Positions 40,553 through 41,531 of a stretch of 64,000 nt of DNA are shown in pieces (position 1 is the first letter of the stretch; every line of letters starts with the position of its first letter). Source of the stretch: Eledone cirrhosa (taxonomy: Eukaryota); the NCBI GenBank assembly GCA_964016885.1, contig OZ024749.1, forward strand, positions 18,538,001 through 18,602,000, written 5' to 3'. A program made the position numbers and the translations under genes. A model generated the notes under the pieces. It had not been told where the DNA came from and ran no database searches. It saw only the letters and a list, made by a program, of their open reading frames with translations.

Positions 40553-41531
40553 ATATAATTACGGTATGTGCGCATTTCTTCTAAGTTTAATTTTACTACT
40601 AATTACGTACGGTTGACGATATGTTTGATCGGATTCTGTATGCTGCCGAAGTGTTTGATAAATAATGGAACGGGGTTAACGCGAACTAGCTGCGGTCAGT
40701 TATTTGTCGGAGATTTCCCAGTTAGAAAATTTACTCTTACAGCTTGCTGGATTTGATTATGTATATGGTTAATTATGCTGATTAGAGGAAGAAATAGTAT
40801 ATATTTTAATATCTGATTGATTCTATAGACACGTTTTATGATATAATGCTCTGAATTTTTTGATTTTAACTTATTAATTCTTCATTGAGCTTAAAAGTGA
40901 ACAGTTGCAACACATATATGTATCATTGATTTAATTTAATTTTATGTATGTGATAACCTCTATATTTAATAATCTCCCTATCGGTTGAGATTAAATTTGG
41001 CGATATATGGCTGCGCTTTCTAGCAGCATGCCTACCCGCCGTAAGCGACCAATCACACGATTTCTCTCTGGCTGGTACACAGCTACATAGCGATCTTAGC
41101 CATTTTTTAATCTAAATTTGGCGGGGTCTGTCTGAGAAATTAAATGTCTATTTCTGAGTTTGTCTCCTGATGATAATCCTGACTCGGGACAGTCCATATT
41201 ATTTGGATGTCCTAAACAAGGAAGAAACCATGGTCGAGATATAATTACGGTATGTGCGCATTTCTTCTAAGTTTAATTTTACTACTAATTACGTACGGTT
41301 GACGATATGTTTGATCGGATTCTGCATGCTGCCGAAGTGTTTGATAAATAATGGAACGGGGTTAACGCGAACTGGCTGCGATCAGTTATTTGTCGGAGAT
41401 TTCCCAGTTAGAAAATTTACTCTTAAAGCTTGCTGGATTTGATTATGTATATGGTTAATTATGCTGATTAGAGGAAGAAATAGTATATATTTTAATATCT
41501 GATTGATTCTATAGACACGTTTTATGATATA
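40553..41531 (+). mobile_element. Retrozyme-like family B: 686-bp unit, ~1.4 copies, non-coding
   Basis: 40553-40845 repeats at 41239-41531; a single HHR sits at the unit junction; flanked by (TA)n. Confidence 0.78.
41161..41241 (+). ncRNA. Type I hammerhead ribozyme
   Basis: TGTCTC-CTGATGA-[TCCT..GGGACA.TCCA tattatt TGGA TGTCCT..AGGA]-A-GAAA-CCATGG-TC-GAGATA; GUC triplet, cleavage after 41235. Confidence 0.82.

Follow-up and report, generated by a model that had tools for sequence, protein, structure and literature searches.

In the 64,000-nucleotide stretch of Eledone cirrhosa DNA analysed here (the window), a non-coding insertion at 40553..41531 (plus strand) begins close to the position equivalent to the predicted cleavage site of its own hammerhead motif. 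This raises the question of whether the 5′ ends of such insertions were produced by self-cleavage of the template RNA, as the original prediction proposed for this copy, and of what kind of element leaves copies of this form. Comparisons with published systems refer to the accessible parts of the sources cited.

Structure and Boundaries of the Insertion

The insertion comprises 1.43 copies of a 686-bp unit, running from unit nt 4 to 686 and then from nt 1 to 296. Unit positions (nt or u) are numbered from the first base 3′ of the predicted cut, which places u1 at 41236 and its first-unit equivalent at 40550. A 294-nt direct repeat (40553-40846 and 41239-41532) recurs at a spacing of 686 with four mismatches, and the 392 bp separating the repeats are non-coding; stop-free stretches in the unit reach 65 codons at most, its GC content is 35%, and no ORF with RT and GIY-YIG domains, as in an autonomous PLE, lies between the repeats. 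The unit had been described as long for an animal retrozyme, which does not hold: published units span 51-972 bp with a fish mean of 650 bp (bioRxiv 10.64898/2026.07.22.740005), and 686 bp is therefore ordinary.

The left flank is a (TA)n-rich tract (33800..40557, strand unspecified) that represents the target and holds a few other inserts. At the 5′ end the flank reads TAT where the unit reads GAG, and unit nt 4-8 (ATATA) cannot be told from the (TA)n sequence, which places the true junction anywhere between 40553 and about 40558. The start had been placed within about 3 nt of the cut; it is indeed near the cut, but the junction zone (40553..40558, plus strand) lies 3-8 nt past the cut equivalent, inside TA microhomology, and a start within a motif common to unit and flank proves nothing by itself about cleavage. 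On the right, unit nt 292-296 (41527..41531, plus strand; end A) abut a (TA)n flank (41527..41560, strand unspecified) followed by the 3′ end of an unrelated minus-strand LINE; end A is the putative start site of reverse transcription. The second fixed end of the family, end B (unit nt 412-419; 40961..40968, plus strand), is internal in the focal copy and sets a "tail" of 116-123 nt. An inverted 5′ arm with a one-sided tail is a feature of the family that the focal copy lacks, and target-site duplications are unreadable in (TA)n. The adjoining LINE remnant (41561-44800) terminates in a run of (CAT)n beside the right flank; it and a second minus-strand remnant (5813-8557) encode AP-endonuclease domains, and the first an RT as well.

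The two repeats of the focal copy carry different alleles at two sites, both alleles being common in the family, which gives a weak hint of a mixed template. All four haplotypes at these sites are common (33, 28, 18, and 11), so that recurrent mutation or conversion is possible and a circular template is not rejected on this ground.

The Hammerhead Motif

A motif scan places a type I hammerhead at 41161..41241 (plus strand), with a predicted cut between 41235 and 41236. It consists of stem I (41161-66 and 41236-41; TGTCTC/GAGATA), the core CTGATGA (41167-73), a stem II domain of 50 nt (41174-41223) whose base carries a 2-nt bulge in the focal subfamily, GAAA (41224-27), and a palindromic 2-bp stem III (ACCATGGT, 41227-34) with the triplet GTC, all on the plus strand. 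Repeat analysis and motif scan thus bear out the period of 686 bp, the approximately 1.4 units, and the single hammerhead with a GUC triplet noted in the original prediction. Rfam at its gathering threshold gave no match in the whole 64-kb window, a result that is not counted against the hammerhead because the covariation test supports the motif. Over 17 family and sister copies the core is near-invariant and stems I and II carry compensatory changes; pairing in the named stems reaches 94.9%, with two-sided changes (13 in all) at three pairs, against 31-44% when the stems are slid, a control that favours the motif because the structure was drawn from the same sequences. The minimum-energy fold of the 111-nt region differs from the hammerhead fold (z -0.62).

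The motif resembles metazoan and PLE type I hammerheads in its 2-bp helix III, palindromic loop, predicted action as a dimer, and enlarged helix II; it is set apart from them by a helix II domain of about 50 nt and by a first pair U-A, the usual G10.1-C11.1 being present in the sister families (PMC4209133). Hammerheads with a short palindromic helix III reportedly depend on dimerisation and show weak cleavage (PMC4209133), and among retrozyme dimers tested in vitro one of nine cleaved (bioRxiv 10.64898/2026.07.22.740005). The focal copy, with its one hammerhead, falls outside that preprint's definition of an active element as two consecutive units with a hammerhead; at other loci of the family, 21 different units run from cut to cut, and 20 of these have a hammerhead motif on both sides. 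Two extra nucleotides at the foot of stem II (41174-41176, compared with locus L017) and a GUC triplet mark the young subfamily; older subfamilies have a perfect stem II and a GUA triplet, and the excess of starts at the cut, described below, is stronger in the young sample.

A predicted long imperfect rod hairpin occupies 41236..41507 (plus strand; unit nt 1-272), and 40553-40821 in the first unit (z -4.8, 0 of 200 shuffles). It is kept in the sister families chiefly by one-sided changes, two-sided changes being found in 4 of 62 consensus pairs. The fold of the segment between ends A and B is not significant (z -0.44).

A Dispersed Family of Tandem Copies

A sequence search of the 3.0-Gb genome returned 2357 candidate places, of which 40 were scored. 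Exact matches to u6-29 occur at 414 places, and two exact patterns for the u296 end followed by TA repeats gave 48 and 517 matches. Sister families, about 70% identical, have units of 660-707 bp with the same layout, both fixed 3′ ends, and 1027 hammerhead matches. Two of three sequencing runs (from one study) yielded collapsed repeat contigs only. Identical junctions were observed at nearby loci (L179, L180, and L181; L203 and L204; L051), and these copies were duplicated together with their flanks, as segmental or assembly duplicates.

Many dispersed copies are non-coding head-to-tail tandems, with arms of up to 3.5 units and, in each unit, a type I hammerhead with a conserved core, as expected of a retrozyme; fixed 3′ ends, variable 5′ truncation, and a partial pLTR-like tandem arrangement are the marks of a non-autonomous PLE. 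Judged by these features, the family has the structural features that define an animal non-LTR retrozyme and appears to behave like a non-autonomous PLE. A plant LTR retrozyme or TRIM, which has true LTRs, fixed ends, and a type III hammerhead, was considered and rejected because 5′ ends vary between copies; the hammerhead here is type I. Tandem arrangement and the lack of a readable target-site duplication in (TA)n would also suit spread at the DNA level, through amplification as a satellite or transposition as a rolling-circle DNA element, in which case the hammerhead would be a relic. This is very improbable in view of the polar structure of the copies (fixed 3′ and variable 5′ ends), their dispersal as single insertions, their PLE-type inverted arms, and the conservation of the hammerhead, with covariation, across about 30% divergence.

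Likenesses to known animal non-LTR retrozymes include non-coding tandem units with one type I hammerhead each, low GC content, many dispersed copies, a length within 51-972 bp, and a proposed mobilisation by PLEs (PMC7229834; bioRxiv 10.64898/2026.07.22.740005). Cleavage and monomeric circular RNA are further marks of that class; in the 686-bp family the excess of starts at nt 1 would be an indirect sign of cleavage. The link between retrozymes and PLEs has already been published (bioRxiv 10.64898/2026.07.22.740005), and a religated circle has been proposed as the template (PMC7229834); insertion-end mapping does not feature in the accessible text of either source, and the two fixed 3′ ends and the excess of nt-1 starts are additions to what is described there.

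Two Fixed 3′ Ends and Head-to-Head Arms

Family copies end at u296 (end A) or at u412-419 (end B), and the two ends are combined in a regular manner. In a sample of 114 copies anchored on end A, 54 have an inverted partner arm, 45 of which end at nt 412-419 and none at nt 296. A second sample, unselected on the 3′ end, began with 103 loci, 13 of them overlapping, and retained 90; the two samples overlap in some loci and cannot be treated as independent. Of 37 head-to-head pairs, four cut by a locus edge and one with a 48-nt low-identity arm were set aside, leaving 32 complete pairs in the 90 loci. These are 25 A+B, 4 A+other, and 3 B+other pairs; A+A and B+B are both absent, with about 6.6 and 6.1 expected under free pairing. 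Arms within an insertion diverge by 1.0%, compared with a median of 3.7% between loci (64 segments), so the two arms come from one RNA or one source locus, and the majority of head-to-head junctions overlap by a few nucleotides. This anatomy, with (TA)n targets, head-to-head arms, and two fixed ends, is a stronger signal than the starts at the cut site.

The arrangement has close parallels in EN+ PLEs. The purified protein of a PLE nicks both strands of AT-rich DNA and extends both; it begins reverse transcription at two positions inside the RNA, which set the genomic tail, and it is predicted to be dimeric (PMC11167929); a tail occurs on one of two inverted pLTRs (PMC3846280), and PLEs favour microsatellites (PMC8557442). 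The 686-bp family shares with EN+ PLE insertions 5′ truncation, partial tandems, head-to-head inversion, a tail on one arm, and microsatellite targeting (PMC3846280; PMC8557442), as well as start sites at two internal positions 3′ of the hammerhead cut and a mostly uncut template (PMC11167929). It differs in that the 686-bp unit has no ORF and the tail is 116-123 nt, compared with 30-40 nt in EN+ PLEs; moreover, TA-like motifs matching the target underlie both of its ends, whereas for the anole element the start sites are described as lacking homology to the cut DNA (PMC11167929). The Chlamys PLE MRC1 is likewise non-autonomous, forms pLTRs, and inserts as head-to-tail multicopy arrays; MRC1-type PLEs, however, have 3′ sequence in common with a known autonomous partner, of which none was found for the 686-bp family, and, as described, mostly lack hammerheads (PMC8557442).

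5′ Ends and the Predicted Hammerhead Cut

Arms were mapped from all 48 u296 anchors and from 73 anchors at 70 loci, taken in order from the 517 matches. Removal of seven duplicated anchors from the 121 left the 114 copies, with 168 arms and 166 uncensored 5′ ends; short inverted matches consisting of TA flank only were dropped by a length rule, with six hand-picked inclusions and two exclusions.

The 5′ ends are spread over the whole unit. Most arm starts (156 of 166) lie outside nt 1-8, 83 of the 93 passes that reach u8 run through the cut intact, and the exact intact cut junction is kept at 332 of the 414 u6-29 places. Other copies therefore begin largely elsewhere, and not at the position of the focal start, as the original prediction would have led one to expect; a small fraction nevertheless does so. 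Arm starts at nt 1-8 number 10, against 1.74 expected (5.8-fold, p about 1e-5), and this window ranks first among all 8-nt windows; the 8 nt upstream of the cut contain 2, against 1.61 expected. Two of the ten ends derive from one fold-back copy. By sample, the excess is 6 against 0.54 expected in young copies and 2 against 0.74 in older ones (p = 0.17). That every template 5′ end, including that of the focal copy, was made by hammerhead self-cleavage is accordingly an unlikely reading: the first rank of nt 1-8, and 23 AT-flanked starts at nt 1-6 against one at -3 to -6, speak for it, but the scattered starts, the passes reading through, and the intact junctions refute it as a rule for the family, and the focal junction lies inside TA microhomology. 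Self-cleavage does not define the 5′ end of the family.

A second set of starts bears on the excess itself. An AT-rich flank at -5 to -1 is present at 23 of the 414 places, with 15 starts in ATATA, 2 at about u2, and 6 at u1. Five of the six u1 starts are unambiguous, keeping G bases that a TA flank cannot supply, and L083 is ambiguous by 2 nt; one unambiguous nt-1 start is located at an inversion junction. A matched but laxer control, for starts at -3 to -6, found one, compared with the six at u1 (binomial p 4e-4). Copies ending at -3 (L105) and -6 (L015) exist, the latter outside these flank patterns. At a control ATATAT motif (u454), one TA-flanked start was counted in the first 100 of 192 places, compared with 8 of 100 at the cut (p 0.035); the ATATA class alone (15 of 414) is not significantly above this control (1 of 100; p 0.21-0.33).

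The excess near the cut might arise without cleavage, by annealing of ATATA (nt 4-8) to (TA)n or by later deletion, together with RT pausing at stem I (nt 1-6). We consider this possible but doubtful. Fifteen of the 23 AT-flanked starts fall in the nt 4-8 class, which does not exceed the control motif significantly, and among other TA-like motifs, whose enrichment for arm starts ranges from 0 to 2.8-fold, that at nt 242-252 reaches 2.8-fold. Annealing and pausing account poorly, however, for the five unambiguous nt-1 starts and for the sharp step at the cut, which recurs in sister families without ATATA, where about five of eight AT-flanked starts are at the cut or at most 1 nt away. Inversion junctions point the same way, with 4 at nt 1-8 (1.06 expected) against 3 at nt 245-256 (3.27 expected).

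The excesses at nt 1-8 and at nt 1 therefore suggest that cleaved RNA is a minority template, real but minor, and that self-cleavage likely shaped some templates. This small excess is what stands of the proposal that self-cleavage made the template 5′ end; for the focal copy the proposal is insecure. The focal copy belongs to the ambiguous start class: its 5′ end would fit a stop at the cut, and TA microhomology explains it about equally well. Two further copies (L080:1490-1510 and L087:1490-1510) start exactly at the cut and are preceded by a short repeat of the first bases of the unit, which looks as if the enzyme had jumped back at the template end.

Purified PLE protein mainly uses uncut RNA, and RNA reads ending at the cut were not found in the anole PLE study (PMC11167929); in the 686-bp family, by comparison, a minor share of the genomic copies begins there. 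Our literature search, judged mostly by titles and the openings of abstracts, found no publication reporting genomic copies that begin at a hammerhead cut, though preprint supplements may bear on this, and in the literature on octopus hammerhead ribozymes nothing on the 686-bp family was found.

The Autonomous PLE in the Window and the Search for a Partner

The window contains a young autonomous PLE (49620..54835, minus strand) that serves as a comparator, with an 826-aa ORF (51317-53797), a 4181-bp unit, 856-bp pLTRs, and an inverted arm. Pfam gives no match to the ORF. It contains what we take to be RT and GIY-YIG-like motifs, and its atlas neighbours carry domains of the GIY-YIG, RVT_1, and HTH_animal families, which are present on 18-99% of their members; its identity as a PLE protein rests on these motifs, the domain families of the neighbours, and the anatomy of the element. 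Dozens of copies genome-wide are 100% identical in the part tested. They end 47 or 211 nt past their own hammerhead-like motif (near 49830-49880, in which CCGAAGA replaces CUGANGA) and read through the motif; in 60 loci the ends are paired as 47+211 in all four complete pairs, the pattern seen with ends A and B of the 686-bp family, giving a tail of 164 nt.

This PLE shows no relationship to the 686-bp unit: a profile of nine natural units has no match under E 0.5 in the element or its 60 loci, and tblastn of its protein against 686-bp units gave none. A partner PLE was not found in a protein search covering 150 scored candidates of 22,295, all close kin of the window PLE. The unit might instead be the pLTR or terminal region of an unsampled autonomous PLE, its short copies being truncations or an immobile deletion derivative. 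PLE-end anatomy, with a hammerhead upstream of two fixed ends, would suit such an origin, animal retrozymes have been traced to pLTRs (bioRxiv 10.64898/2026.07.22.740005), and PLE protein fragments are present in the flanks of many family loci. We nonetheless hold it improbable: arms continue into the previous unit, up to 3.5 units, subfamilies with units of 658-707 bp exist, and at the mapped 5′ junctions TA flank, unique flank, or an inverted arm was seen and no PLE ORF among the loci checked, which are not all loci. A non-coding hammerhead tandem retroelement, that is, an animal non-LTR retrozyme, mobilised in trans by a PLE RT-endonuclease, is to our mind a well-supported and probable reading of these sequences.

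Other Elements in the Window

Distinct hammerhead motif matches in the whole 64-kb window number 22. Family A (27880-33796) is a 484-bp tandem with a minimal hammerhead and palindromic stem III, in a mirror arrangement of five units on one strand and seven on the other; blastn finds no match between it and the 686-bp unit, which confirms that the two are unrelated, as originally stated. An approximately 443-bp relative of family A (80% identical) forms a second mirror insertion at 9802-11017. An older, broken PLE (13-5643) has a reading frame interrupted by a stop (2556-4091, minus strand), pLTRs, an inverted arm, and hammerheads at 4763-4829 and 5581-5643. More type I hammerhead-like motifs (24853-24924, 35763-35807, 60246-60290, and 61605-61670, the last on the minus strand) come from three or more additional families. 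Further large insertions with mirror-image arms lie within (TA)n at 13806-19924, 21709-24826, and 58335-60850, with arm identities of 88%, 94%, and 72%; they are likely further PLE-type events.

Proposed Mechanism and Significance

In the mechanism we propose, a PLE enzyme acting in trans would bind the unit RNA and nick (TA)n, and reverse transcription would be primed inside the RNA at unit nt 296, at nt 412-419, or at both. Extension of both target strands would give one start per site, and the two cDNAs would be joined head-to-head by short microhomology. The template would usually have an unbroken junction, being an uncut multimer or a religated circle; copying would halt at random or, in roughly one in ten passes, at nt 1-8, likely on hammerhead-cut RNA. 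The cutting hammerhead would probably act as a dimer through its palindromic stem III. Priming at end A, passage across one junction, and a stop at the following one would account for the focal copy.

There is, in our estimate, an even chance that the copies record an in vivo PLE reaction on a 686-nt RNA, in which a two-headed complex uses sites about 120 nt apart, strictly one per strand, and about one in ten passes ends at the hammerhead cut. If so, the family would provide sequence evidence for germ-line cutting by dimer-type ribozymes and for retrotransposition of the cut RNA, the latter not seen in PLE in vitro work.

The class of element is already known; what is modestly new is the strict A+B rule, counted here with its 116-123-nt tail, and the sharp, small excess of starts at the cut. 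In the one in vitro system, cleavage by the hammerhead was dispensable (PMC11167929). The 686-bp family offers a countable in vivo read-out of what the hammerhead does in PLEs and animal retrozymes, in its mostly unbroken junctions, its cut-site excess, and its rule of one end per arm; it lends support to the idea, already in print, that animal retrozymes make use of PLE enzymes, and provides a short RNA for testing it.
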